Positions 4,778 through 34,281 of a stretch of DNA of 64,000 nucleotides are shown here, piece after piece. Position 1 is the first letter of the stretch, and every line of letters begins with the position of its first letter. Made by a program: the position numbers and the translations under genes. The notes beneath the pieces are model-generated. The model had not been told where the DNA came from, ran no database searches, and saw nothing but the letters and a program-made list of their open reading frames with translations. The stretch is from Candidatus Binatia bacterium (GTDB lineage: Bacteria; Desulfobacterota; Binatia; Bin18), in assembly GCA_963664395.2 (NCBI GenBank), contig OY761159.2, positions 3,424,001-3,488,000 on the forward strand, read 5' to 3'.

Positions 4778-6013
4778 TCAGCCTGGGATCATTCCAAATA
4801 CGCGTAAGAATTGAAAGACGCCCAAGCCCGTCACAATGAGCACAACCGCGCTGCCCGCCATATTGGCCAGGGGGCCGTTTGTGTACGCGCCGAGGAGATT
4901 CTCCTTATTCATGACGAACAGGAGACAGCCGGCAAGGAGGGGGAGTAAGCACGCGTTGACCGCTTGGGCAAGCAGGATAGCCATCAGCGGGTGCTGCCCA
5001 AAAAAGGCCAGCCCTGTCCCAATCAGGACGATCGCACTCCACACCAGTCGAACCTTCCCGCTATGGCCGTCTCCTGACCAGCCCAGCACCCCGGCCGTGG
5101 CATAGGCGGCGGCAAGTGGGGCGGTGACGGCACTGGTCAACCCGGCGGCAAACAGGCCGGTCGCAAAAAGGAGACGCGCGTGTGAGCCGACAAGCGGCTC
5201 AAGTTGTCTGGCTATGGAGGCGGCATTTTCCAATGGCATCCCCTGGCCAAAAAAAGCCGAGGCCGCGGTTGCGACCATGGCCAGGGTGAGAACACCACCC
5301 AGACTGATCGAGAGCAGCGTATCGGCACGTGCCTCACGCAGTGCTTGTGGAGCGCGCATTGTAGCCGGCCACTTGGCTTGGACCGTACTGGCGTGCAGAA
5401 ACAAATTGTACGGAACGACTGTGGTGCCGATCAGCGCCATCACTGTCACAAATGACCCGGGGGGTATGGTCGGGCTGAAGAAGCCGGACAAGATGTCCGA
5501 GAGTGCTGGTTGGACGAGAAGAGCCGTCAGCAGAAAGACCCCACTCATGAGCACAACGAGCAGAACCAGCACGCGCTCAATAGCCGCATACGTCCCGGAC
5601 CACAGCAACCCAAAGGCCAGACCGCCAATGAGCAGGGTCCAGGCTGAGGCCGGGAGCCCGGAGACATCGGCTAAGGCCACCGCCGCGCCAAGGATATTGC
5701 CCATCTCAAACGCGGCGTTGCCACAGCCAATGCCGATGACCACAAGGGTCAGGAGCGGGATACGGAGGAGTGGGGTCTGAATAACCGTCCGCAACGCTTC
5801 GCCTAATCCACTGCGCGCAACAACACCGAGTCGGGCCGCCATTTCTTGCAGGACGAGTGTTGCAAAAATGGAAAACCCTACCGCCCACACCAGGGCAAAC
5901 CCAAACTGTGCCCCTGCGATACTAGCGGTCGTTACGGTCCCCGGACCAATAAAGGCGGCGGCAACGAGAAACCCAGGACCAAAGAGACTCTTGCGCTGCA
6001 TGCCTGAGTCCAT
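4778..6013 (-). CDS. NRAMP-family (YcsG-like) transporter
   Basis: FGPGFLVAAAFIGPGTVTT, QEMAARLG, GTTVVPYNLFLH; about 11 TM helices. Start uncertain. Confidence 0.85.
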   Translation of the reverse strand: MDSGMQRKSLFGPGFLVAAAFIGPGTVTTASIAGAQFGFALVWAVGFSIFATLVLQEMAARLGVVARSGLGEALRTVIQTPLLRIPLLTLVVIGIGCGNAAFEMGNILGAAVALADVSGLPASAWTLLIGGLAFGLLWSGTYAAIERVLVLLVVLMSGVFLLTALLVQPALSDILSGFFSPTIPPGSFVTVMALIGTTVVPYNLFLHASTVQAKWPATMRAPQALREARADTLLSISLGGVLTLAMVATAASAFFGQGMPLENAASIARQLEPLVGSHARLLFATGLFAAGLTSAVTAPLAAAYATAGVLGWSGDGHSGKVRLVWSAIVLIGTGLAFFGQHPLMAILLAQAVNACLLPLLAGCLLFVMNKENLLGAYTNGPLANMAGSAVVLIVTGLGVFQFLRVFGMIPG

Positions 6014-21846: not shown

Positions 21847-22082
21847 AAGGCCCTCCTTGCTTCTAATTATTATGGATAAATGTGATGTTGTCTTATCTGA
21901 GAGAACTCACTGCTGTCAAGGGATTCAGACGCTTCTCAATCCCGCTATGGCGACGGAGCCGACTGATAAAGCCCCCATTTGGTTTGCCCCTTGGTCTACC
22001 TCTTGCATGTGAAGTGGCGAATCTCTAAAAGAGAATGAACATTCACTCAGACACTCAGGCACTTAGGATAGGGGGGGACCGA

Positions 22083-23348
22083 ATGCGAATAAGAAAGCGT
22101 AGCGTCCTGTGTCTCACTGGCATAATGAGCTTGGTGGGGCTGTTGTCAGGAGGCGTGTATGCCCAGGACGGAGACCAAAAACTGCTGGATGGTTTTCTCC
22201 CTTACCGTAATGGCAGCCCACAGATTGACGGGATTACGCCCGGCATGACGCTGACCAAAGAAAATGTCCAGCTTGCCGAAAAGGTGTTGCCGCCGGAGAT
22301 CGTCCGCGTTGTCCAGGCCGGAGATTTTGAGATTCCGGTGCAGGCGACAACCGATCTTCCTATCCTGGATGCCTATATGCAGGCGTCGGTCGAAAATGCC
22401 GGCCAAACCCAACTCGGCGCCGATGGCGAACTCCAGAACTACACGCTGGGCCAGCCTTTCCCCCTGATCGATCCGGCCGACCCGCAGGCCGGGCTCAAGG
22501 CCGCCTGGAATTACCGCATGCGCTATATGGGCGATACGCTCGTAACCCACGGCGTCCTGCGTACGATCAACAGCTCCGGCAATACCGAACGGGCGGTGGA
22601 CACTCGCTATTCGCGCATGTACGGCATGTTCCGCCCGAATCCCGAGCGCAACGTACCGAAATGGGCCAAGGAAGGGACATGGTGGCGGGAACACTCAATC
22701 GTCATGAGTCCCCAAGACCTTGAAGGGGCTCAGAGTCTCACCTTTCACTATGCGGCGGATACGACAAACCAGAAGGGATGGGCCTACGACCCGCAGAGTC
22801 GCCGCACGCGCAGCATTGTCGTCAACCATCATGCGGCCTCATTCGAGGCGAGTTTCTTAATCGAAGATCATACCGGCTTTCAGGGCTATCTACACAACTT
22901 CACCTGGAAGTATCTGGGCGAACAGGTGGCACTGGTGCCGGGGTTCGTTGGCGGAACGCCTCCGGAGTATGGCGGCAAAGGCGGCTGGTATCCCCAATCC
23001 CCGTGGGAATTGCGCAAGGTCATCGTTCTTGAATCAACCTCCAACGATTCGGGCCACCCGTATGGCAAGCGGCGCTTGTACATCGATCGACAGATTTATT
23101 CGGTCTTTTACGTCTTTGTATATGACCATGAGGGCAATCATTGGCGGACGCTGCTCCACACGTTTGGTGACCCTGCCGATGATCCGGACCATGCAGAGGC
23201 GAAAGGCACGCATCTCCACTTAGGCAATGTATGGATTGACTACAAAAGCAATAGCGCCGCCCTGTGGACCGCCGACAAGGTTTTGGTCAACAAACCACTC
23301 AAACCCAAGAAGTTTACGGTCAGAGAGATGGTACGCCTGGGGAAGTGA
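22083..23348 (+). CDS. DUF1329 family periplasmic protein
   Basis: Signal peptide; G.PFP.IDP.DPQAG.K.AWN, PQDLEG, W.Y.P..RR.R, WELR, HPYGKR..YID. Confidence 0.8.
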   Translation: MRIRKRSVLCLTGIMSLVGLLSGGVYAQDGDQKLLDGFLPYRNGSPQIDGITPGMTLTKENVQLAEKVLPPEIVRVVQAGDFEIPVQATTDLPILDAYMQASVENAGQTQLGADGELQNYTLGQPFPLIDPADPQAGLKAAWNYRMRYMGDTLVTHGVLRTINSSGNTERAVDTRYSRMYGMFRPNPERNVPKWAKEGTWWREHSIVMSPQDLEGAQSLTFHYAADTTNQKGWAYDPQSRRTRSIVVNHHAASFEASFLIEDHTGFQGYLHNFTWKYLGEQVALVPGFVGGTPPEYGGKGGWYPQSPWELRKVIVLESTSNDSGHPYGKRRLYIDRQIYSVFYVFVYDHEGNHWRTLLHTFGDPADDPDHAEAKGTHLHLGNVWIDYKSNSAALWTADKVLVNKPLKPKKFTVREMVRLGK

Positions 23349-23393
23349 CGGGGAGCGAGTGATGCAAGGAGATGGGGTAAAGGCGTGCAAAGT

Positions 23394-25226
23394 ATGCAAA
23401 ATACGATGCAAGAGACGACGAATGAGCGCCCTCCATCGCTCCTGAGACGGACCGGGCTGCTCCCGCTTGGTGGCTTGATTGGTGGTTTGCTCGTTGGCCT
23501 GTTGCTCTGGCCCGCCCTGCTGTACGCCCGCTTTCTGGACGAGGCCCAAACGTTGCGCTTTAACGGCCGGGTGTATAACCGGACGGCTATGGCAGTGGAA
23601 AACGCGGACGCGAACACCCGTCTCCAGACACCGTATAATGCATTCAACATGCTCCAGAACCGCACCTTCGTCCAACTCGAAATGCGGCACAATCTGGTGG
23701 ATCTGGTTGAAGGCAGCTATCAAGGACCTCTCAGTATTCTCGCCCCTCTCCTCAAGCCGCTGCAGTGGCTCCAGCTTGAAGATATGAGTTATTTCATGAC
23801 CTATCGGGGGGAGTACGACGGCGTCTGGGACTATGGACCCGACGTGTTCCGCGAGCGCTTTCCCCTGCTCTCCAACTGTGGTCAGCCCAGTAAACACAAA
23901 CGGACCAGTCCGCGTCAGTTTGCCGACTGCTCGCGCGTCAACCCGCGCCGCACCTTACGCAAGCGCCATCGGCTGTTCGAAGCCTATGTTGATCTGTCCT
24001 GGGAGGCGCTCTTTTTGCGCATTGGGCGACAAAACCTCTCCTGGGGAGAGACCGACGCCTTCCGGCTCCTGGATCAGATCAACCCGCTCGACGCCAGCTT
24101 TGGCGGCTTTCTCGTCTCCCTGGATGACCGCCGCGTGCCCCTGGACATGGTGCGGGCCGTGTATAGCTTTGAGGATATCGGTCCCTTCTCCGAACTGAAC
24201 ATTGAGAGCTACGGGGCCTTTGACAAGAATATCTCCAGCCCGACACCGGCTGGCTCACCCTGGTCCACCCCGAACCCGCCGGGGATGCGGAGTGTCGTCA
24301 AAAAGCCGGCGCAGAATTTCAAGGACACCCGAGGCGGCTTTCGCGTCACCGCCAGGGTCGGCGAGCTGACGCTCTCCGCGGCGCATTACTACACGTTTCT
24401 GGATACGCCGGAGGTTCGCATTGTCACTCCCAGGAAGAATCCTCCGATTAGTCTGGCGGCGTTTGAGCAAGCGGTACACGAAGGGCTGGCCTCTCAGTTC
24501 ATTGTGGATAACTTCCAGGCCAATGTGCTGTATCCGAAAATTGCGATCTCCGGTCTGACGGCTTCTTTTCCCATGCCGAAGTGGTACGCGATCATCCGCA
24601 GCGAGGCGGCTGTTTTCTGGGACGAGCCGTTCTTCAAGAACTCGGGGGCTACGCAGCTCCTCGGACCGGTCCTGTCCGGCGGCCAGCTCACACCCGGTTA
24701 CCGCCAGGTCGGGATCGATCCCGCCACCGGCTCGCCGCTGCTGTCGTATGAGAACGATATTGCCCACTCACACGTTGTGCGCTGGGCGCTGGGCATCGAT
24801 ATCAATCGCTATATTCGTGCCCTCAATCCTCAGCAGTCGTTTATTATCAGCGGGCAGATGTTCGGCACGCATATCGTCGATTTTAACGACACCTCGCTGG
24901 CCTCAGCCGGGCCGTACGGCTTTGGCCATTTTGCGATTCCGGTCAGCGAGCCGAACCGCCAGAACCAATCCCTGGTCAACATCGATCAACACCAGTTTGT
25001 GAATACGCTGAGTATCTCGACCTCCTTCCGCTCCGGGGTGATTAAACCCCAGTTGGTCTTCTTCTACGACTGGCAGGGTTCCTGGCTCGTCCAACCGGGG
25101 ATTACTCTGACGCGCGACCCTTTTCGCCTGACGCTCCAGTACAACTACCTCGACGGCCAGTACAACGGCATCGGTTTGCTGCGGGATCGGGACAATCTGA
25201 TTACGCAGCTTGAGGTGGTGTTTTAG
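23394..25226 (+). CDS. DUF1302 family outer-membrane beta-barrel-like protein
   Basis: LRIGRQNLSWGETDAFRLLDQINPLD, C-terminal RDRD...EVVF; paired with DUF1329. Start uncertain. Confidence 0.78.
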   Translation: MQNTMQETTNERPPSLLRRTGLLPLGGLIGGLLVGLLLWPALLYARFLDEAQTLRFNGRVYNRTAMAVENADANTRLQTPYNAFNMLQNRTFVQLEMRHNLVDLVEGSYQGPLSILAPLLKPLQWLQLEDMSYFMTYRGEYDGVWDYGPDVFRERFPLLSNCGQPSKHKRTSPRQFADCSRVNPRRTLRKRHRLFEAYVDLSWEALFLRIGRQNLSWGETDAFRLLDQINPLDASFGGFLVSLDDRRVPLDMVRAVYSFEDIGPFSELNIESYGAFDKNISSPTPAGSPWSTPNPPGMRSVVKKPAQNFKDTRGGFRVTARVGELTLSAAHYYTFLDTPEVRIVTPRKNPPISLAAFEQAVHEGLASQFIVDNFQANVLYPKIAISGLTASFPMPKWYAIIRSEAAVFWDEPFFKNSGATQLLGPVLSGGQLTPGYRQVGIDPATGSPLLSYENDIAHSHVVRWALGIDINRYIRALNPQQSFIISGQMFGTHIVDFNDTSLASAGPYGFGHFAIPVSEPNRQNQSLVNIDQHQFVNTLSISTSFRSGVIKPQLVFFYDWQGSWLVQPGITLTRDPFRLTLQYNYLDGQYNGIGLLRDRDNLITQLEVVF

Positions 25227-26562
25227 GCCGGAGCGCGGCGATGAGATCGCCTTCACCCAGCGCTTGCTGCTTCCCGGTTGCCAGGTCCTTCAGGGTATAG
25301 AGCCGGCGCTCGACTTCATCGGGTCCGAGAATGAGCGCATAGGGAATCTGCTGGGCGTCCGCGGCTGAGAGTTGGCGCTTCAACTTGCTCTGTTCCGGAT
25401 AGACCTCAACTGTAATTCCTGCCTGCCGCAGGCGCGAGGCAAGTCCGACCGCCGGTGGCAGCGGGGTATCCGGCAGGACGCAGACCATTACCTGGGCCGT
25501 CAGTTGCAGCGCCGGAAACATGTTCCGCTCTTCCATTAAGAGCAGAATACGTTCCAAACCCAGGGAAAAGCCGACCGCCGGCACCTGCTTGTTGCTAAAC
25601 ATGCCAACCAGGTTGTCGTAGCGTCCGCCGCCACCTAACGAGCCACTAAAGTCTTGTGAGACGACTTCGAAGATTGGACCGGTATAGTAGCTCAGGCCAC
25701 GTGCCAGCGCCGGCGCCAGGTGGACATGCGAACCTGCCGGTGCATCCAGAGTTAGGGACAAAAGCGTTTCAAGGTCACCCAGCGCCTGCTGCGCTTCGGG
25801 CTGTGACAGTTGCCCGCGCAACGTTTCCAATACGCCGTGATTGTCCGTTTGTGTTGAGGTCAGAGCGAGCAGACGGTGGGCGGACTCCTGAGCAATCCCA
25901 CGTTGCATGAGTTCTTCCCGAACCCCGTCAACGCCAATTTTGTCCAGCTTATCAATAGCGATGAGAGCGGAACCCTCAAGGCCGGGGTCAATGCCGGCCG
26001 TCCCGATCATGCTGCGAAGAATCACCCGGTGGTTGAGCGCAATTGAGAAGTTCGAAAAACCGAGATCGAGTAAGGCATTGCTGACCGCGTTCATCACCTC
26101 GGCTTCGGCCAGCAGCGACGTTGTGCCAGTCAGATCAACATCGCACTGATAAAACTCACGAAAGCGACCTTTTGCCGGCCGGTCCGCCCGCCAGACGGGT
26201 TGAATCTGATAGCGCTTAAACATCCTGGGCAGGCTGTTGCCATACTGGGCCACGACGCGAGCTAACGGAACCGTGAGATCGTAGCGCAGTCCCAGCTCGG
26301 CCAGGTCCCCGGCTTCGGGGGACTCTTTTTCCAGGGCACGGGTGAGTTTGTCGCCCCGGTGGAGGAGCCGAAAGAGGAGTTGGTCGCCCTCCTCCCCATA
26401 CTTCCCTAACAGCGTGGTCAGATTTTCGATGGCCGGAGTTTCGAGGGGCAGAAAACCATAGCGCTGAAAGACGTCCTCAATCTTCGCCACAACGTAGCGT
26501 CGTTTTGCCACCGTCTCGGGTAAATAATCTCGCATGCCACTGGGCGGCTTGGTACTCGGCAT
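25201..26562 (-). CDS. hisS: histidine--tRNA ligase
   Basis: GMRDYLP, LRYDLTVPLAR, WRADRPAKGRFREFYQCD, LARGLSYYTG, GGGRYDNL, GFSLGLER. Confidence 0.95.
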   Translation of the reverse strand: MPSTKPPSGMRDYLPETVAKRRYVVAKIEDVFQRYGFLPLETPAIENLTTLLGKYGEEGDQLLFRLLHRGDKLTRALEKESPEAGDLAELGLRYDLTVPLARVVAQYGNSLPRMFKRYQIQPVWRADRPAKGRFREFYQCDVDLTGTTSLLAEAEVMNAVSNALLDLGFSNFSIALNHRVILRSMIGTAGIDPGLEGSALIAIDKLDKIGVDGVREELMQRGIAQESAHRLLALTSTQTDNHGVLETLRGQLSQPEAQQALGDLETLLSLTLDAPAGSHVHLAPALARGLSYYTGPIFEVVSQDFSGSLGGGGRYDNLVGMFSNKQVPAVGFSLGLERILLLMEERNMFPALQLTAQVMVCVLPDTPLPPAVGLASRLRQAGITVEVYPEQSKLKRQLSAADAQQIPYALILGPDEVERRLYTLKDLATGKQQALGEGDLIAALRPKTPPQAA

Positions 26563-26685
26563 AAGGTCACCTTTGGCAGTTGGAGTCAGTGAAGAAGTGT
26601 ATCCGTTCCTGAGAGAGCTGTCAGGGCCGTAGGTCGAATTAGCGGAGCGTAATCCGGCACCAGAGCTCACCTCGTACGTTTCGAT

Positions 26686-28632
26686 TCAGCCCCGGACCGC
26701 CGCCCGGAGGGCTGCGCGTCCCTTGTCCGACAAGGAGAGACGACGCTCCCATATGCCGTGGCTTTGCACCTGGCCAATGCGTTCCAGGCGACTGACGACC
26801 ACGCCGAGGGCCGAGGCATTCGCCTCAAGCGCTCCTCCCAAGGTGCGTAGCGTCTGCGGGCCGCTCTCAATCTGCCTGAGGACCTGGAGTCCAAGGGCGT
26901 GGACTGAAGAGGGCGGCGGGGTAGATTCTCCAGATTCTTCACTATCTCCACGATCCTCCACCCGTTGCTCTCCTTGGGGAGTAATCCTAAGGGTGAAAAA
27001 GTCCGGGCCTGATTGAGCCTGACGCCGGACCAGGCCAGCGGCTATCAGTTCATTAACCAGGTGGTTCCCGTGCGCGGCGTCCATTCCAAGAAAATCGGTC
27101 AGCTCAACCATCTGTCCATAGCCTTGGTGAAGCAGGTCCAGGAACTGTTCATGCTCGGCGGTGAGGGGGGAGGGTTCCTGGTCAACTCCTACGCGCCCGT
27201 CCCGTTGGTTTACCGGCCGTGAAGTTGCCAGTGAGATCAGAACGATCAAAGGCAGGGTGACGAAGGTTCCGATAAGAACCGTATGCGTTGACCAGGCGGT
27301 CACGCCCGTCAGCTGTAAGCCCTCGTATACGAGCATGACCAGCATCCCGATGAGCGTCCCCCAAAACGCGCCCGCGGCGGTTATCCGCGACCAGCGGTGC
27401 CCGAGTAAAAAGATCAGAGCCGCCGGCCCCAGCATCGCGCAGCTGATGGCCAGCAGAAAATAGGGCCCGCCGGGGTAAAAACTTAACAGCCAAATGCCGC
27501 CGCCGGTGACGACGGTGAGAAGCCGGCTGATACGCAAGACCTGCTCGCGGGTTGCCTCCGGATGCAGAAAGCGTTGATACAGGTCACGCACCAGGGTCGA
27601 GGTAATCCCCAGGTGGGCGTTGCTGGTGGTTGAGATGGTGGCCGCCAAGGCCGCCACCAAGCCGAAGAGCGCCACCCCCGGGGGGAGGTCGCGCATCAGC
27701 ATGCCATACGCACTCATGGGGTTGGCCCCACCGAGAAAGGCTGTGCGGTACACACTCCCCGCGTACAATCCGAGCATGCCCAACGCACCGTGGACTATCA
27801 GGACGACGACGGCCCCACCAATCAGATATTGCCAGCGCGCGACAAACTCGGTACGGGCCGCCGCGGCGCGCAGCCAGTAGTAGTTGCCACCCCACTGAAT
27901 AAACATGCCCACCACCAGGGAGACGGTGATAATGCTGGGATAGCTCAGGCGTAACCACGGAAACGTGCCGGCCGTTCCCTGGGTCAACGGAGCCGAGGAA
28001 ACAAACTGGGCCTGGATCATGTCCCAGCCACCAAACGTCCACGCACAGTAGCCGACTAGGGCCGGCAGCAGGATGAAGCCCAGAATAACCTGCACGACAT
28101 CGGTCAGGGTCAATGCCCACAGGCCGCCGAGGAGGAGAAACATGAGGTGGCCGCCGAGAATCAGCGTCACCATCAGCCACAGCGGAGCGTCAAGAAAGCC
28201 GATCATAATCAGCGCCATGGCAATGACATTCATGGCGACCAGGCCGGTCACACCGAGGAGGGTGGCAATGCTGACCACCAAGCGGGTCCGGGCATCAAAG
28301 CGCATTTCCAACCACTCCGGCAGGGTGTAGGCACCGGAGCGACGGATATACGGACAGGCCAGCAGGCCGTATATCCAATAACCAACGACCGCCGGCAGGC
28401 TAATGCCCCACACCCAGCCAAAAAAGCCGTACTGAATGGTCAGGCCCGGGATAATGCTGGTGACACTGCCGGCAAACGCGATCCCACAAATCCCGGCAAT
28501 ACCGGGGAGCAGACTGACCTGACGGCCGGCAAGCAGATAATCGGCATCGGTCGAAACCCAGCGTTTGGCATACCAGCCCAGAGACCAGAGAATAGCGATC
28601 AGGATGAGAACGGACAGGCCGGAGATAAGCAC
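26686..28632 (-). CDS. sodium:solute symporter family protein fused to two C-terminal winged-helix domains
   Basis: DYLLAGR, YTLPEWLEMRFD..R, GGL.A..LTDVVQ, AATIST, RDLYQRF, AGAFWG; about 13 TM. Then two MarR-like segments ending LRITPQG and LSLSDKG. Confidence 0.85.
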   Translation of the reverse strand: MLISGLSVLILIAILWSLGWYAKRWVSTDADYLLAGRQVSLLPGIAGICGIAFAGSVTSIIPGLTIQYGFFGWVWGISLPAVVGYWIYGLLACPYIRRSGAYTLPEWLEMRFDARTRLVVSIATLLGVTGLVAMNVIAMALIMIGFLDAPLWLMVTLILGGHLMFLLLGGLWALTLTDVVQVILGFILLPALVGYCAWTFGGWDMIQAQFVSSAPLTQGTAGTFPWLRLSYPSIITVSLVVGMFIQWGGNYYWLRAAAARTEFVARWQYLIGGAVVVLIVHGALGMLGLYAGSVYRTAFLGGANPMSAYGMLMRDLPPGVALFGLVAALAATISTTSNAHLGITSTLVRDLYQRFLHPEATREQVLRISRLLTVVTGGGIWLLSFYPGGPYFLLAISCAMLGPAALIFLLGHRWSRITAAGAFWGTLIGMLVMLVYEGLQLTGVTAWSTHTVLIGTFVTLPLIVLISLATSRPVNQRDGRVGVDQEPSPLTAEHEQFLDLLHQGYGQMVELTDFLGMDAAHGNHLVNELIAAGLVRRQAQSGPDFFTLRITPQGEQRVEDRGDSEESGESTPPPSSVHALGLQVLRQIESGPQTLRTLGGALEANASALGVVVSRLERIGQVQSHGIWERRLSLSDKGRAALRAAVRG

Positions 28633-28813
28633 GGACTTCCTTGCCCCCTTGCTTCTTCAATAAGCGTTCCGTGTCCTGATAGCGTAAGCAAGCCGGAGGA
28701 CACAAGGCGTACCGGATTCGATGCGCTTCGACTCACCTGAAAATTTTGCGCGTTGGGTTGCATAATTGCTACTGACCAAATACTGAGGCTTTGAATCAAA
28801 AAAGGAGAAACGC

Positions 28814-29872
28814 ATGACCCAATATGTCTACGCTGGTGCGTCGCAGTTTTCCAGGAACGGCCACACCGCTCCACTCAGCGGCCTGTGTCGTCAAAGAGTC
28901 GGGGAGGCGGAGTGGCAGATTTTGAGCCAGGGCCTCCCGGAGCAGGCTGAGATTCGGGCCATTCTTATCCACCCTGATAATCCGCAGCTGCTATATGTCG
29001 GCACCCAGCAGGGGCCGTACCGCAGTACGGATGGCGGGGCGCACTGGGAGCGGCTGGATTTTCCGGACGCCGGGATGGCCGTATGGTCGTTGCTGTTTCG
29101 CCCAAATGATCCGCAGGTCCTGTATTGCGGCACCGCCCCTGCTGCCATCTATCGGAGTGACAACGGCGGCGACACCTGGAAACGCCTGACCCTTGCCGAG
29201 CCTGCCGGCATGGTTGAAATGGGTTTTCCGTGCCGTATCATCGACCTTGCAGCTGATCCCAACAATCCGGATGCGCTGTATGCCGGCCTGGAGGTCGGCG
29301 GAGTCATCCGCAGCGGAGACGGCGGCGACACCTGGGAGGACTGTACCAAAGCACTGCTCCAGTTTGCCGAGCAGGATTATTTGAAGAGTCGTATTTTGAG
29401 TAATACCGATGCCGAAGGCATGATGGACACGCATGCCGTGGCGCTGAGCGCGGCTCAGCCGGGCACCGTCTTTCTCGCTACACGCATGGGTCTCTTCCAA
29501 AGCCCGGACCAGGGCCAGACCTGGGCTGATATGGAAATCTGGCGCTCTTCGCCGTTGACGTATACGCGCGATATCCAGGTCGCCCCCAGTGACCCCAACA
29601 CGCTCTACGCCGCCCTGAGTCCGGGGGCGCTCAGCTTGAACGGCTCTGTCTATCGCAGCCCGGACCTGGGTCAGACCTGGCAGCGCTTTGCTCAGGGCAT
29701 CACCGCCCGGAGTACGATGATGACCGTTGCTCTCAGCCGCCAGGACCCGCAGCTCGCGTACTGTGGCACACGGGAAGGCCAGGTGTTCGGCACCCAGGAC
29801 GGCGGGACGACCTGGGGCGAGTCTGCGCTGCCGGACGGATGCCAGAACGTCTATACCTTGGCATGCGGATAA
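28814..29872 (+). CDS. BNR/Asp-box beta-propeller protein
   Basis: Repeated S.DGG.TW motifs (RSTDGGAHW, RSDNGGDTW, RSGDGGDTW, SPDQGQTW); AGGAG RBS. Confidence 0.85.
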   Translation: MTQYVYAGASQFSRNGHTAPLSGLCRQRVGEAEWQILSQGLPEQAEIRAILIHPDNPQLLYVGTQQGPYRSTDGGAHWERLDFPDAGMAVWSLLFRPNDPQVLYCGTAPAAIYRSDNGGDTWKRLTLAEPAGMVEMGFPCRIIDLAADPNNPDALYAGLEVGGVIRSGDGGDTWEDCTKALLQFAEQDYLKSRILSNTDAEGMMDTHAVALSAAQPGTVFLATRMGLFQSPDQGQTWADMEIWRSSPLTYTRDIQVAPSDPNTLYAALSPGALSLNGSVYRSPDLGQTWQRFAQGITARSTMMTVALSRQDPQLAYCGTREGQVFGTQDGGTTWGESALPDGCQNVYTLACG

Positions 29873-30200: not shown

Positions 30201-30267
30201 GGAATCATCATTCCATCAATTGGAGCGTGGAGGCGATTCCGAAGTGACGGAAGCAGGACTCACGACA

Positions 30268-33200
30268 ATGCGGCAGCACGCAGGACGCGTACTGCTGGGA
30301 GCGATGCTGGCCTTAGTCGGGTCAAACGCTTCGGCCCAAACCCCGGCGGTAACGGTGTATTTCGGCGACTCCGCCTACTCTGTAAACGAAGGCGGCAGCG
30401 TGGCGGTGCAAGTCCAATTGAGCGCCGACCCCGAGCGCGCCCTGACCATTCCCCTGGAAGCGACACCCGGCGCCGCTATTGTGACCATCGCCGACAACGA
30501 CGATCCGGCGGTGACGGTCTCGTTTGGCTCGGCGACCTCCACCGTCACCGAAGGCTGGACCGTAGACGTGATGGTGACGCTGAGCGCCGACCCCGAGCGG
30601 ACCGTGACGATTCCAGTCGAGGCGTCGCCTGCTGCGTCCGGCGATTATTCGATACCCGGCAGTGTCACGTTTAATGCCGGCGAGACGCAAAAGCCCGTCA
30701 ATTTCGCCACGGTCGACGACACGGTGGTCGAAAACGCGGAGACGTTCACCTTATCTTTCGGCAGTGACCTGCCAGAGGGAGTCAGCGCGAGCGGTCAGAC
30801 CACCACCCAGGTGACTATTACGGACGACGACGCACCGGACCCCGGCGGGCTGGAGCTGAGCGCGCTCGCGGTGACCGATGGGGTGGGAAGCATGTACCCG
30901 GTCTTTAATCCCAGGACGTACCACTACGCCATACGTTGCCCGGATGCCACCACCTTACGCGTGACGGCAACCGCGGGAGACGCCTTGCACCAACTGACAC
31001 TGAACAATATCCCGGTACCGGGCATGGAACTGGACAAAAACGTCGTCGTGGACAGCGACCATGATATCGCAATCGAACTCAGCGGCGGCGGTGACTCGGT
31101 GACCTATATCGTGCACTGCATCCCCTCGAATTTTCCCAACATCAAGATCACCAAGAAGCAGGCTGGTGTGTCGGATGGCCTGATGTTCTTCACGCCTGCG
31201 CGGAATCTTGGCTCTCGAACTCCGGCCTTTCTGGCCATCATGGACAACAACGGCGTGCCCAGATTCGTCAGACCCTCCCCGGACAAGATTCCGCTGAACT
31301 TCCGCCGTCATGTCACCGACCTCGAGATCGACGGACGGCCCGTACACTATTCGGTCACGCACCGCCTCGGGTCGTCGTTTGACGGCGGGCACTCCCTGCT
31401 CGATGCCTCCTTCAACGTCATCGGGACCGTAGAAACGACGCACGCGGATCACACCGCCAGCCTGCATGATTTTCTGATCACCGAAGACGACACCTTCCTG
31501 TTTTTCTCCCACGGGACTGTGACCCGCGACGTTGGGGGGAATGAAAAAAGTACAGTCGAGAACGTTATTGAGGAGGTCTCGCCAACCGGAGAAGTATTGT
31601 GGAGTTGGAACTCCTGGGACCATCTGACGATCGATCCCGACTGTCTGGAGTATAGGTATGGCTTGAGATCGGACCCGCCCATTACTGCGCACATCAACGC
31701 CCTCACCTTGATCGACGGAGATGTTGTCGCGTCATCCAGGGGCTGCGCGCAAGTCGTGAGGATCAACCGGTCCGGGAAATCGGAGACGGATGACGGCACC
31801 GACCTCGTGTGGCAACTCGGCGGGACGGACCAGGACGCCGACGACCGCGCATTCCTGGCGATCAGCGGCGACGAGAGCGGCAGGAATGAATTTTGCCGGC
31901 AGCACCATGCAACGGAGACCGCTGCGGGGACGGTGGTGTTGTTCGACAACGGCGTGAACTGCCTGTCCGCGGAAATGGGCGAGCCCAATGGGCGGGAAAG
32001 AGGCGACCTCCCAACGTTCTCCAGAGCCGTAGAGTATGACATCGACACGGCCACCGGCACGGCCGAGTTCCACCGCGAGGTCCGGCTGGACCGCAGGTAC
32101 GGCTATGCTCCTTTTACCGGCAGCGTCGACATACTGGAAAACGGGCACTGGCTGATCAACTGGGGCTATCTGCGCTATGCGGATCCCAGCCTGAGCGTGG
32201 AGGAATATTCGATAGCCATCAGCGAGGTGGACGCTTCTGGCACCGAGTTGTTGCAAGTCAAAACTTGGGAGTGGGAGGGCACCTCTCGTTACAGCACGTT
32301 CCGGGTGTACCGGGAATCCGAGGCCGACGTGGAAATCCCGCTGAATCTCCCGGTGACGCTGACGCTGGAGAGCGAGCGAGCGGCAGAGAGCGCCGGGGAG
32401 ATGGTGTTCGAGGTCGAGCTGAGCGTGGCGAGTAGTGAGGAGATAACCGTAGACTATGAGACCGCGAATGGCACGGCGACGGCGGGCCAGGACTACACGG
32501 CACAGAGCGGCACGCTGAGGTTCCCGGCGAACAGTACGACCCCACAGGAGATCTGCGTCCCCATCCTCAACGACGCCATGGACGAGGCCGAGGAAGAGAC
32601 GTTTACAGTGCGGCTACGCAACGCGACGAACGCGACCTTGGCAGGTGGCGGGACAACCTTGACAGCGACGGGGACGATTACGGACGATGACGAGCCGGTG
32701 GTGGCGGTGTCATTCAAAGCGGCACGCTACACGGTGGACGAAGGCAAGGCCGTCGAGGTCACGGTGCGGCTGAGTGCCGACCCGGAACGCCAGGTGGAGA
32801 TTCCGTTGACGCGCACGCCTGGGAACAACGTGGAGCCGTCTGACTACTCGGGAGTGCCGGACATGGTCGTGTTCGAGAGCGGCGACCGTGAACGGAGTTT
32901 TTCCTTTATTGCTCTGGCCGACCAGGAGGAGGAGGCCGCCGAGACGGTCACCATCGACTTAGGCGTGCCGCTGCCGACCGGGGTGGAGCTGGGCAGTCCC
33001 GCTACGACGGTCGTGATGATTGGGAGGCTGTCCCCACTACCGCCACCACCACCGCCTGGCGGTGGCGGGGAGGACCGCCGTGACCTGCATGGTAACACCC
33101 CCGCCCAAGCGACCCGTGTCCGGCTGGGCAGTTCCGCGCCCTGGGCGTCTTCCACGGACGGGCAGATCAACCCGGCCAGCGAGGTGGATTACTTCACCCT

Positions 33201-34281
33201 CATGGTGCCGCAGGCCGGCGTGCTGGTGGTCCAGACCACCGGCTCCACCGCGACCGTGGGCATGGCATGGCAGGCCGGCGTGGAGCTGGGCAGCGCGGAC
33301 AGGGGCGGCGTGCGCCAGAACTTCCGGCTCAGCGTACCGGTGGCAGCCGGGCCGGTGGTGATTGCCGTGGCCGGGCAGGGGAGTCGGACCGGGAGTTATA
33401 CCGTAGAGACCCGCCTGATGGTGGGGTATCTGGAGAACCCCGGGAATACCTCCTTTCAGAGCGGCATCGGCGTGCTGTCGGGCTGGGTGTGTGCGGCCGA
33501 GGAAGTTGAGATCACGCTCGGGGCGTTGACCCCGCAGATGGCCGCCTACGGCACCGAGCGACTGGACACGGCCAGCAAGTGTGGGGATACGGACACCGGG
33601 TTTGGGTTGCCGTTCAACTGGAACCTGCTGGGCGACGGGGCACATGAAGTGGTCGCCCTGGTCGATGGTGTGGAATTGGACCGGGCCACCGTGACGGTGA
33701 CGACGCTAGGGCAGGAGTTTCTGCGCGGTGTTGAAGGCACGTGTACGGTGTCCGACTTTCCGAGCCTGGGCAAGACGGTCACCCTCCTGTGGCAAGAGGC
33801 GAGGCAGAACTTCGCCATTGCGGACGGCGCAGCCCCGAGTGGGGAGACTCGTTCCGGGGCGGCGGACGTGGGGTATCTGGAGAATCCGAGCCCGAACTCG
33901 TTCCAGAGTGGGGTAGGGGTGCTCTCCGGCTGGGTGTGTGAGGCCGAGGAAGTGGAGATCATGCTGGGGGACTTAGCCCCGCAGATGGCGGCCTACGGCA
34001 CCGAGCGGCTGGACACGGCCAGCGAGTGTGGGGATACGGACAATGGGTTTGGCTTATTATTCAACTGGAACCTGCTGGGCGCCGGGGAGTATGTCGTGGT
34101 GGCCCGGGTGGATGGGGAAGAACTGGGCCGGACCACCGTGCGGGTGACGACCCTGGGGGCGGAGTTTCTGCGCGGAGTTGCGGGGGAATGTACGGTCGCA
34201 GACTTCCCCATGACAGGCGAGACGGTCACGCTGGAGTGGCAACAGAACAGTCAGAACTTTGTGATTACGGATTTCGAGTGA
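30268..34281 (+). CDS. large secreted multidomain protein: Calx-beta repeats, arylsulfotransferase (ASST)-like propeller, two conserved C-terminal repeat domains
   Basis: Signal peptide ending ASA-Q; VTI.DDD Calx-beta motifs; ASST motifs LHDF, HINAL, FCRQHHA, LFDNG, SRAVEY; poly-Pro linker; tandem LENP...SGWVC domains at 33424-33819 and 33871-34278. Confidence 0.85.
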   Translation: MRQHAGRVLLGAMLALVGSNASAQTPAVTVYFGDSAYSVNEGGSVAVQVQLSADPERALTIPLEATPGAAIVTIADNDDPAVTVSFGSATSTVTEGWTVDVMVTLSADPERTVTIPVEASPAASGDYSIPGSVTFNAGETQKPVNFATVDDTVVENAETFTLSFGSDLPEGVSASGQTTTQVTITDDDAPDPGGLELSALAVTDGVGSMYPVFNPRTYHYAIRCPDATTLRVTATAGDALHQLTLNNIPVPGMELDKNVVVDSDHDIAIELSGGGDSVTYIVHCIPSNFPNIKITKKQAGVSDGLMFFTPARNLGSRTPAFLAIMDNNGVPRFVRPSPDKIPLNFRRHVTDLEIDGRPVHYSVTHRLGSSFDGGHSLLDASFNVIGTVETTHADHTASLHDFLITEDDTFLFFSHGTVTRDVGGNEKSTVENVIEEVSPTGEVLWSWNSWDHLTIDPDCLEYRYGLRSDPPITAHINALTLIDGDVVASSRGCAQVVRINRSGKSETDDGTDLVWQLGGTDQDADDRAFLAISGDESGRNEFCRQHHATETAAGTVVLFDNGVNCLSAEMGEPNGRERGDLPTFSRAVEYDIDTATGTAEFHREVRLDRRYGYAPFTGSVDILENGHWLINWGYLRYADPSLSVEEYSIAISEVDASGTELLQVKTWEWEGTSRYSTFRVYRESEADVEIPLNLPVTLTLESERAAESAGEMVFEVELSVASSEEITVDYETANGTATAGQDYTAQSGTLRFPANSTTPQEICVPILNDAMDEAEEETFTVRLRNATNATLAGGGTTLTATGTITDDDEPVVAVSFKAARYTVDEGKAVEVTVRLSADPERQVEIPLTRTPGNNVEPSDYSGVPDMVVFESGDRERSFSFIALADQEEEAAETVTIDLGVPLPTGVELGSPATTVVMIGRLSPLPPPPPPGGGGEDRRDLHGNTPAQATRVRLGSSAPWASSTDGQINPASEVDYFTLMVPQAGVLVVQTTGSTATVGMAWQAGVELGSADRGGVRQNFRLSVPVAAGPVVIAVAGQGSRTGSYTVETRLMVGYLENPGNTSFQSGIGVLSGWVCAAEEVEITLGALTPQMAAYGTERLDTASKCGDTDTGFGLPFNWNLLGDGAHEVVALVDGVELDRATVTVTTLGQEFLRGVEGTCTVSDFPSLGKTVTLLWQEARQNFAIADGAAPSGETRSGAADVGYLENPSPNSFQSGVGVLSGWVCEAEEVEIMLGDLAPQMAAYGTERLDTASECGDTDNGFGLLFNWNLLGAGEYVVVARVDGEELGRTTVRVTTLGAEFLRGVAGECTVADFPMTGETVTLEWQQNSQNFVITDFE

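Follow-up and report, generated by a model that had tools for sequence, protein, structure and literature searches.

The window considered here is a stretch of 64,000 nt from a Candidatus Binatia bacterium (assembly GCA_963664395.2, contig OY761159.2, positions 3,424,001 to 3,488,000 of the forward strand). On its minus strand, at 26686..28632 with the stop codon included, there is a single intact open reading frame (ORF) of 648 aa with a GTG start. The start position is the same in the orthologues compared, where it is either ATG or GTG. The ORF encodes a sodium:solute symporter (SSS) transporter domain followed by a predicted cytoplasmic tail of two winged-helix units, WH1 and WH2, and is located between hisS, downstream on the same strand, and a divergent BNR/sortilin-like gene (28814-29872). 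An initial annotation, made from the sequence, had described a complete SSS domain that continues in frame into two MarR-like winged-helix units. This architecture is borne out by the Pfam SSF match, by AlphaFold2 (AF2) modelling, and by profile and structure matches. Both of the stretches that were quoted for the units, EQFLDLL...LRITPQG and LQVLRQI...LSLSDKG, are present in the translation, as is the acidic, proline-containing linker between them, which reads RVEDRGDSEESGESTPPPSS.

The full-length AF2 model has a predicted local distance difference test score (pLDDT) of 91.3 and a predicted template modelling score (pTM) of 0.90. The tether between the transporter and WH1 is about 20 residues overall and is disordered in the model, with pLDDT below 50 at residues 475-484. 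The linker between the units likewise has pLDDT below 50, at residues 568-573, and ranges from 5 to 29 residues in length across the family. The whole-chain pTM of 0.90 suggests that the position of the tail relative to the transmembrane (TM) domain is predicted with some confidence. The features of the gene are given in Table 1.

Table 1. Features of the SSS-winged-helix gene and its upstream region, in window coordinates.
Feature	Position	Strand	Basis and remarks
Whole ORF	26686..28632	(-)	648 codons plus stop at 26686-26688; GTG start at 28632
SSS/SLC5 transporter domain, 13 predicted TM helices	27223..28632	(-)	Residues 1-470; Pfam SSF, AF2, profile
Flexible tether, TM13 to WH1	27166..27222	(-)	Residues 471-489; low pLDDT; length and sequence vary among relatives
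Winged-helix unit 1 (WH1)	26965..27165	(-)	Residues 490-556; AF2, MepR match, sub-threshold MarR_2/MarR
Acidic/Pro inter-unit linker	26908..26964	(-)	Residues 557-575; low pLDDT, net charge -4
Winged-helix unit 2 (WH2)	26689..26907	(-)	Residues 576-648; AF2, PadR/MarR matches, invariant columns
Conserved upstream block	28672..28708	(-)	Kept in 11-13 orthologue loci

The transporter domain matches Pfam SSF (PF00474) over residues 32-429 with an E value of 3.9e-27 and 95.6 bits against a cut-off of 22.8, covering profile positions 1-406 of 406. TIGR00813 is matched at E 1.1e-28, under its curated cut-off. The domain does not belong to the named equivalogs PutP, PanF or VC_2705/ActP-like, scoring 64.3 against 320.75 for TIGR03648 and 46.3 against 515.5 for PutP. 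Because no NCBIfam equivalog approaches its cut-off, and all are missed by a wide margin, the domain is on sequence grounds a distinct and unnamed SSS subfamily.

Thirteen long helices precede the tether in the full-length model. The hydropathy profile and the Lys/Arg-rich alternate loops agree with an N-out, C-in topology, and from the 13-TM arrangement and this positive-inside pattern the tail is predicted to be cytoplasmic. The SSS review describes CbrA and MxtR with 13 TM segments, and gives the Na2 site as two hydroxyl ligands (Ser/Thr) in core TM8 (PMC7918813). Across the 43 aligned sequences of the family S334 never varies, and T335 is conserved in at least 90%. The family profile matches vSGLT at E 6e-40, with S334/T335 opposite the 'SS' of the vSGLT core TM8, which we take to be its Na2 pair. 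The ratio of nonsynonymous to synonymous substitution (dN/dS) of the TM domain is 0.05-0.07. Because the Ser/Thr pair of the Na2 site is kept and the constraint is strong, the transporter domain is read as functional; it probably is a working Na+-coupled symporter, rather than a degenerate or vestigial sensor.

The tail of the window protein is not recognised by Pfam at curated thresholds. MarR_2 scores 18.6 bits with the whole protein and 23.2 with the tail alone, against a cut-off of 27, and MarR scores 17.0 and 21.7 against 24.6. All of the tail matches, to MarR_2, MarR, TrmB and HTH_34, are under their cut-offs even when the tail is scanned alone, and those to MarR_2 and MarR fall at residues 508-540, in WH1. 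The best match in a single-sequence search of PDB chains has an E value of 0.47, and significance comes from profiles only. From the sequence of this protein alone, 'MarR-like' was a reasonable guess and not a significant one.

The checks of the C-terminal tail that had been proposed, by AlphaFold and by profiles, confirm two winged-helix units. The AF2 model of the tail, built from a 31-sequence alignment (A2), has pLDDT 86.2 and pTM 0.76 and consists of two units of the form helix-helix-helix-strand-strand-helix with a disordered linker between them. The WH1 elements are H492-502, H508-515, H519-531, E535-537 and E547-550; those of WH2 are H576-589, H595-602, H606-618, E622-625, E631-634 and H636-647. 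Against the PDB, the A2 profile matches MarR-family chains at E 5.5e-4 to 1e-3, with nearly all matches being to MarR-family or related winged helix-turn-helix (wHTH) chains. The profile of the stand-alone relatives described below (A3) reaches E 4.5e-6, and the full-length family profile matches a MarR chain at E 6.1e-6. The stand-alone profile also retrieved a genuine MarR gene at E 4.5e-10. A paralogue in the same genome clears the Pfam cut-offs, at 33.2 against 27 bits for MarR_2 and 32.7 against 21.9 for HTH_24, and so do some distant members (P0075, MarR_2 31.8; P0067, TrmB 36.9). A protein atlas gave a score of only 0.77 to assorted wHTH clusters, and these are leads only.

Structure comparison gives the same picture. 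The top matches found by VIA-align, a Foldseek-independent search over 48,161 chains, are DNA-binding wHTH regulators, with Z scores of 11-13 and, for WH2, a root-mean-square deviation (rmsd) of 1.6-2.9 A over 73-80 residues. WH2 matches PadR-DNA (Z 13.0), E. coli MarR-DNA (Z 12.7, rmsd 1.6 A over 73 residues), BldR and VanR, while WH1 matches MepR (Z 12.0, rmsd 2.2 A over 73 residues). Foldseek with the whole tail returned MarR-family regulators and the two-domain SarS, plus the RNA- or protein-binding tandem winged helices of SelB, ScpB and RNA polymerase III subunits. Both units thus have the wHTH core fold by structural match, and, judged from profiles and models, the tail is a tandem pair of MarR/PadR-type winged-helix domains. 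MarR proteins homodimerise through N- and C-terminal helices that flank the wHTH. In the AF2 model each unit of the tail is only the wHTH core, of about 67-73 residues, without flanking dimerisation helices. With bare wHTH cores, and with the Pfam scores of the window protein under their cut-offs, the tail is not a strict member of the MarR family.

The two units are unequal. In the window protein WH1 is acidic, with a net charge of -6 and an isoelectric point (pI) of 4.8, and WH2 is basic, with a net charge of +5 and a pI of 11.7; the linker between them has a net charge of -4. WH2 is the more basic unit in 35 of 43 fused proteins and in 25 of 28 stand-alone proteins, with medians of about -2/-3 for WH1 and +2/+3 for WH2. 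The wing Arg of MarR proteins contacts DNA. The wing of WH2 reads GIWERR, its G626, W628 and R630 are invariant among Binatia tails, and R630 lies opposite the Arg of the MarR wing 'DKRQ' in an alignment to MarR chain 5hlh. The wing of WH1 reads SGPDFF and has no Arg at the MarR wing position in an alignment to MarR chain 9qdr. WH1 has conserved positions of its own: Binatia tails all have G504, Y505, E510 and D513, and at least 90% of sequences family-wide keep D513 and R537. The dN/dS is 0.09-0.18 for WH1, 0.10-0.25 for WH2 and 0.25-0.88 for the linker. Both units are under purifying selection and the linker is weakly constrained.

The initial annotation had allowed that the fusion could be unique to this assembly. 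Using the tail as query, a word-based search identified 15 full-length relatives, and a scan of species-representative genomes gave 44 loci, mostly in Candidatus Binatia metagenome-assembled genomes (MAGs) and several in closed chromosomes. The fusion is present in 44 out of 44. Seventeen loci are of the orthologue type, with neighbours 81-95% identical, and 27 are of a paralogue type (58-68% identity); the two are often both found in one genome, and the genome of the window has two fused copies. In a class-level sample of 151 genomes the tail is present in at least 18, all of one family (17/18 of that family sampled; 0/132 in 18 other families), and in a phylum-wide sample it is present in at least 2 of 121, these counts being floors since 24-30 first-look candidates were scored per genome. 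The tails of the paralogues end in variable low-complexity (S/G)(V/I/M)E(S) repeats, of up to about 12 copies, followed by LRPKGP-like ends. The number of repeats varies by genome (e.g. L029:7420-7977, L036:7420-8022, L035:7420-8001).

More widely, a profile search of 1.84 billion representatives gave 202 matches at E <=1e-3, of which the 150 listed were classified by script. Among these 150 there are 27 full-length fused proteins, 25 shorter proteins with TM segments upstream of both units, which probably are fragments, and 47 stand-alone two-unit proteins of up to 200 aa without TM segments. The remaining matches are partial (39), multi-repeat HTH (8) or other (4). Pfam SSF is found in 27 of the 28 full-length matches scanned, the exception being P0075, which has 11 predicted TM segments. 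The named distant cluster members are from Atribacteria, Negativicutes and Syntrophobacteraceae, and are annotated solely as 'sodium:solute symporter'. With 44 of 44 loci and at least 27 distant full-length clusters, the survey of the architecture across genomes shows that the fusion is not unique to the window assembly. A stand-alone profile match in a second Clostridia genome (G556/L051) was rejected, being an ordinary single-domain MarR beside ArsA.

The stand-alone two-unit proteins are, by profile comparison, true homologues of the tail (A2 against A3: 99.9% probability, E 3.3e-34, 158 columns). Their genomic context was covered in two lineages, Lachnospiraceae MAGs and Bathyarchaeota-like contigs. 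In two Lachnospiraceae MAGs (L045/L046) a gene for a 160-aa tandem-wHTH protein begins 16 nt past a gene for a 563-aa SSS protein that is 29% identical to the window transporter over its whole length (E 3e-50). In two metagenome contigs (L052/L053) the gene for a 171-aa tandem-wHTH protein, which is recorded under the name of a Bathyarchaeota archaeon, shares 8 nt with the end of a gene for a 558-aa SSS protein that is 27% identical to the window transporter (E 1e-44). A control set of 80 SSS loci, retrieved by means of a distant fused member, was searched with both tail hidden Markov models. The module was found in the 3 fused Syntrophobacterales loci only and was absent, fused or nearby, from the other 77. 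On these sequence comparisons the tandem module belongs to one SSS subfamily, being either joined to the transporter or encoded directly downstream of it. Such joined-or-adjacent pairing is a classic signature of proteins that work together.

The split SSS proteins are extended at the C-terminus by a soluble stretch of about 90 aa (L046:3700-3981, L052:4239-4505) that is absent in the fused forms. This stretch has no match to a Pfam family at E <=5 and no similarity to the tail profile.

The genes that surround members of the family differ between lineages. The same-genome paralogue (L054, G000:C1:2576000-2593000) is a 657-aa SSS-wHTH protein at L054:7116-9086 and it is WH1 of this protein that clears the Pfam cut-offs. 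It is in an apparent operon with genes for a small membrane protein, a MetE-like protein, a luciferase-like monooxygenase and an aminotransferase, divergent from an HpaB-family hydroxylase gene. Other members of the family adjoin Amidohydro_2 genes and a Rieske oxygenase. The Lachnospiraceae split locus has FMN and 2-hydroxyacid dehydrogenases and xanthine-dehydrogenase-type subunits as neighbours; the Bathyarchaeota-like split locus has a cyclase, an FAA hydrolase, a cupin, an enoyl-CoA hydratase and an ADP-forming acyl-CoA synthetase; and the Syntrophobacteraceae fused locus has a cyclase, a beta-eliminating lyase and an aldehyde dehydrogenase. The common thread of these neighbourhoods is oxidative or aromatic acid catabolism, which would make the substrate class an aromatic or other organic acid. 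Candidates in line with the neighbouring genes would be aromatic 2-oxo and 2-hydroxy acids, hydroxyphenylacetate-type acids, and aromatic amino acids with their breakdown products. No second transcription-factor domain was found in the flanking genes scanned in the catabolic clusters. An HTH_3 gene is present in L054 about 4.4 kb further downstream, seemingly as a unit of its own.

Several further genes recur beside members of the family. The small membrane protein directly upstream of the paralogue SSS-wHTH gene, with a gap of 5 nt in L054, is about 165 aa and has no Pfam family. It is found in 21 loci, is 51-79% identical between them (L054:6628-7110 (+), L021:5469-5972, L024:1302-1808, L022:4418-4915), and may be an accessory subunit. 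A conserved ORF at L054:6073-6642 (-), with a homologue at L027:4911-5540, is between the HpaB gene and the divergent promoter and is found in 18 paralogue-type loci besides L054; about 140 C-terminal residues are conserved, with no Pfam family. A 'putative cyclase' (PF04199) is beside the SSS gene in both a fused and a split locus, at L055:7830-8681 in Syntrophobacteraceae, where it overlaps the SSS 3' end, and at L052:1038-1814. This cyclase may be a recurring functional partner.

In the promoter of the paralogue operon some 40 nt are conserved as a footprint, centred on a TTGcG-N-CGCAA pseudo-palindrome and set between -35-like and -10-like hexamers (L054:6440-6640 and equivalents, e.g. L027:5380-5406). 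It includes the region ATTTGC-N-TTG-N6-AACAC-N-GCGTA. Fourteen loci each have a single match to a 27-nt pattern taken from this footprint, and among them are L022 and L025, whose flanks have diverged. The footprint is a candidate operator, and may just as well belong to the core promoter. A mini-ORF of 18 codons in the leader of the paralogues was also considered, and was dropped as it is interrupted in the genome of the window and absent in L022 and L025.

Transporters with signalling modules and membrane-held winged helices are both known, and the family described here differs from each. The SLC5/STAC kinases (CbrA, CrbS/MxtR, RpuS) have, like the window protein, an N-terminal 13-TM SSS domain and a cytoplasmic signalling module (PMC13022988, PMC7918813), and CbrA has been called a 'rare transceptor' (PMC13022988). 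In these kinases the SSS domain is followed by STAC, PAS, HisKA and HATPase_c (PMC7918813), whereas the window protein has two winged-helix units there, and no STAC, PAS, HisKA or HATPase_c domain was found in it with Pfam at E <=1. The kinases use a phosphorelay to a separate response regulator, whereas the output of the window protein would be direct, through a winged-helix pair on the same chain. CbrA is described without Na2 residues (PMC7918813); the window protein keeps the Ser/Thr pair of the Na2 site.

ToxR and CadC have a winged-helix DNA-binding domain held at the membrane, as the window tail would be (PMC5936718). They are bitopic, with an N-terminal cytoplasmic winged helix, one TM segment and a periplasmic sensor (PMC5936718), whereas the window module is C-terminal, MarR/PadR-like and duplicated, and is on a 13-TM transporter without a periplasmic sensor. 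Full-length membrane-bound CadC binds its own promoter, and LysP passes substrate information to it by conformational change (PMC5936718). The split pairs of SSS and tandem-wHTH proteins resemble this LysP-CadC-like pair, and the fused form would be such a pair in one chain. CbrA/CrbS and CadC-LysP are precedents for both halves of the transceptor idea.

Among soluble regulators, the MarR family (MarR, OhrR, MepR, ST1710, SlyA) shares with the units the core of three helices and a wing (Z 11-13, E to 4.5e-6) and the wing Arg of WH2. The tail differs from it in having two heads by tandem duplication in one chain, rather than a homodimer, and in its acidic WH1 without a wing Arg. SarS (1p4x), at Foldseek rank 3 (E 6e-4), has two MarR-like winged-helix domains in one polypeptide, as the tail does. 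The superposition is poor (TM-scores 0.36/0.26, rmsd 14 A), so a common inter-domain arrangement is unsupported, and SarS is soluble and has no link to a transporter, unlike the window protein. In Mlc-PtsG and MalT-MalK a transporter captures a soluble regulator according to the transport state, which is a natural model for the split form. To our knowledge these pairs are not adjacent coupled genes, are not fused, and have other folds.

It had been stated at the outset that no characterised direct SSS-wHTH fusion was known. This holds in the literature searched, from which subscription-only papers and InterPro architectures were outside the scope: it contained only SSS-histidine-kinase fusions and bitopic ToxR/CadC-type proteins, and no SSS-associated tandem winged-helix protein. 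In the available text of the SSS review the terms 'winged' and 'DNA-binding' are absent, and 'Helix-turn-helix' occurs once, in the abbreviation list of a figure legend (PMC7918813). The SSS proteins with tandem winged helices are thus a family without a description in the literature searched. Beyond the initial annotation, this analysis adds the split forms, the unequal character of the units (an acidic WH1 without a wing Arg and a basic WH2), and the location of the paralogues within clusters for aromatic/oxidative catabolism.

The architecture and fold of the protein, the homology of its tail to MarR-type DNA-binding domains, the cytoplasmic location, the purifying selection, the pairing of fused and split forms, and the specificity for one SSS subfamily are regarded as established. 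The reading that we tentatively prefer, with a little less than even confidence, is that the protein is a transporter-coupled one-component regulator, or 'transceptor'. The SSS domain would import a substrate in a Na+-coupled manner, with an aromatic or other organic acid being suggested by the neighbours. The tether of about 20 residues holds a single-chain MarR/PadR-type pair at the cytoplasmic C-terminus. WH2 is proposed as the nucleic-acid-binding head because it is basic and keeps the wing Arg. WH1 is proposed as an adaptor, contacting the transporter or masking WH2, because it is acidic, is without the wing Arg, and presents a conserved G-Y...E..D surface of its own. Whether the module can occupy nearby uptake and catabolic promoters would then depend on the transport cycle of the substrate. 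What we infer in this scheme is that the module binds DNA and is coupled to transport, how WH1 and WH2 share the work, what class of substrate is imported, and which genes are targets.

A stronger form of the transceptor reading is possible, and is put forward with less assurance. Here the polytopic transporter would itself be a transcription factor, the tandem module acting as a single-chain pseudo-dimer on operator DNA at the membrane, with its occupancy set by the transport cycle. The split pairs would be a two-protein version that captures and releases a dedicated regulator. These proteins would then form a new class of one-component transceptor in bacteria and archaea, tied to the uptake of aromatic or organic acids.

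A number of observations weigh against the transceptor reading. The window tail is net acidic (-6, pI 5.5), Binatia tails have a median net charge of -3, WH1 is itself acidic and without the wing Arg, and no polar residue of WH2 is conserved in at least 90% of the wider family in the 43-sequence alignment. The window copy is between hisS and the BNR gene, outside any obvious catabolic operon. The footprint of the paralogues is absent from its promoter: TTGCGNCGCAA, with 1 mismatch allowed, has 2 matches in the window against 3.8 expected, with none near the gene. No inverted repeat was found at seed 6 in window 28600-28850, and no palindrome or 10-mer is common to 18 orthologue-type and 25 paralogue-type upstream regions. 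The conserved upstream block at 28672-28708 probably is the gene's own promoter, TTGTGT-N18-TATCAG, although it is absent from the list produced by the consensus scan. Tight translational coupling or 1:1 fusion is seen more typically among the subunits of a complex than between a transcription factor and the gene it controls. The tandem winged helices of ScpB, SelB, Rpc34 and SNF8, which are also among the structural or sequence matches, bind protein or RNA. A regulator that is permanently anchored by a 13-TM protein can act only on DNA that is drawn to the membrane, which is known for CadC/ToxR (PMC5936718) and is uncommon.

Several of these points would be accounted for if the module binds no nucleic acid and is instead a regulatory or adaptor subunit that docks at the cytoplasmic side of the SSS domain and gates or stabilises it, that mediates oligomerisation, or that recruits a cytoplasmic partner such as the first catabolic enzyme. 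This is the main alternative, and we regard it as possible but rather doubtful. Fusion and translational coupling imply 1:1 stoichiometry and physical association, and the whole-chain pTM hints at a defined arrangement of tail and transporter. The conserved surface of the acidic WH1, the negative overall charge of the tail, the protein-binding tandem winged helices (ScpB, SNF8, UFL1/DDRGK1) among the matches and the lack of a shared operator among the upstream regions compared would also suit an adaptor. Against such a role, the nearest relatives in both sequence and structure are overwhelmingly DNA-binding regulators, WH2 keeps its basic charge and wing Arg, and the catabolic clusters scanned are without another regulator. 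The neighbouring enzymes also vary widely by lineage, which argues against one fixed enzyme partner.

The initial annotation had suggested that the tail perhaps controls the divergent BNR/sortilin-like gene, as a membrane-tethered regulator, which would be a repressor or an activator. The two genes are divergent across an intergenic region of 181 nt and are adjacent in 12 of 17 orthologue loci. The conserved block in this region reads GCCTTGTGTCC...GCTATCAGGACA and contains a 7-nt inverted repeat, GTGTCCT-N19-AGGACAC. The BNR synteny is confined to the 17 close orthologue loci, where it is expected because these are near relatives (neighbours 81-95% identical), and the 27 paralogue-type loci have other neighbours; neither the paralogues nor the distant members have a BNR neighbour. 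A gene of the CMD family (carboxymuconolactone decarboxylase) separates the BNR and SSS genes in 5 of the 17 (L012, L013, L014, L016, L042). The conserved block, moreover, is adjacent to the SSS gene and can be read as a -35/-10 pair. That the tail controls the BNR gene thus has no support beyond adjacency in close relatives and is considered unlikely.

Two other features of this intergenic region differ between orthologue loci. The intervening CMD-family gene, which is absent from the window, encodes about 202 aa (L014:5375-5983) and ends 17 nt before the SSS start in L014. In L009 the region between the SSS and BNR genes (~5700-5880) contains an insertion of tandem units of about 15 nt, which are CCCCTCTTCACTCGC-like.

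It is considerably less likely again that the tail is an RNA-binding module like the SelB winged helices, acting on the operon mRNA or on other RNA at the membrane. SelB winged helices with SECIS RNA are at Foldseek ranks 2, 4 and 8 (E 4e-4 to 9e-4), and the basic WH2 would be suited to binding RNA. However, the TM-scores to SelB are low (0.27-0.45, rmsd 8-10 A), the individual domains match MarR/PadR better, and the upstream region yielded neither a conserved stable RNA structure nor an Rfam family. The block upstream of the window gene has no Rfam match at E <=1. A hairpin or riboswitch in the 5' untranslated region was rejected, having a minimum free energy z of 0.16, with 113 of 200 shuffles folding as well and a pairing register that varies by genome. 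Finally, an artefactual fusion, through a lost stop codon or an assembly error, or a neutrally decaying appendage, for which the lower conservation of the tail than of the TM domain could be cited, is effectively refuted by the identical in-frame fusion in each of the 44 loci, which derive from many independent assemblies, closed chromosomes among them, by its presence in 27 distant full-length clusters among the matches listed, by the dN/dS of 0.09-0.25 of both units, and by the confident fold prediction.

The genes to either side in the window have features of their own. The longest ORF of hisS (25201-26670, minus strand) begins 15 nt past the SSS stop, and its Pfam HisRS domain begins at residue 45. 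A promoter-like site at 26624-26596, shortly before the Met at residue 37, suggests that hisS has a later start, at this Met, and its own promoter. Just past hisS, at 22035-25226 (+), is a pair of DUF1329 (LolA-like) and DUF1302 genes. On the other side, 30220-34281 (+) encodes a protein of 1,353 aa that combines Calx-beta repeats with a beta-propeller domain of the arylsulfotransferase (ASST) type; two near-identical repeats of about 150 aa are found in its C-terminal part.

The sensing of imported compounds is usually carried out by separate sensors, and in the few bacterial transceptors known so far (CbrA, CrbS) the signal is relayed by a kinase and a second protein. If the transceptor reading is true, no route from uptake to transcription could be shorter than a transporter that bears DNA-binding heads of its own. 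The membrane-integrated one-component systems, which are of the bitopic ToxR/CadC type in the literature searched, would also gain a polytopic class. If the tail is instead a regulatory subunit that does not bind DNA, it would still be an accessory module of a kind so far undescribed in SSS transporters. Experiments have a ready starting point in the fused and split versions that occur in nature. The link between this SSS subfamily and the catabolic clusters of uncultured Binatia, Atribacteria, Syntrophobacteraceae and Bathyarchaeota could aid the assignment of substrates to these transporters.

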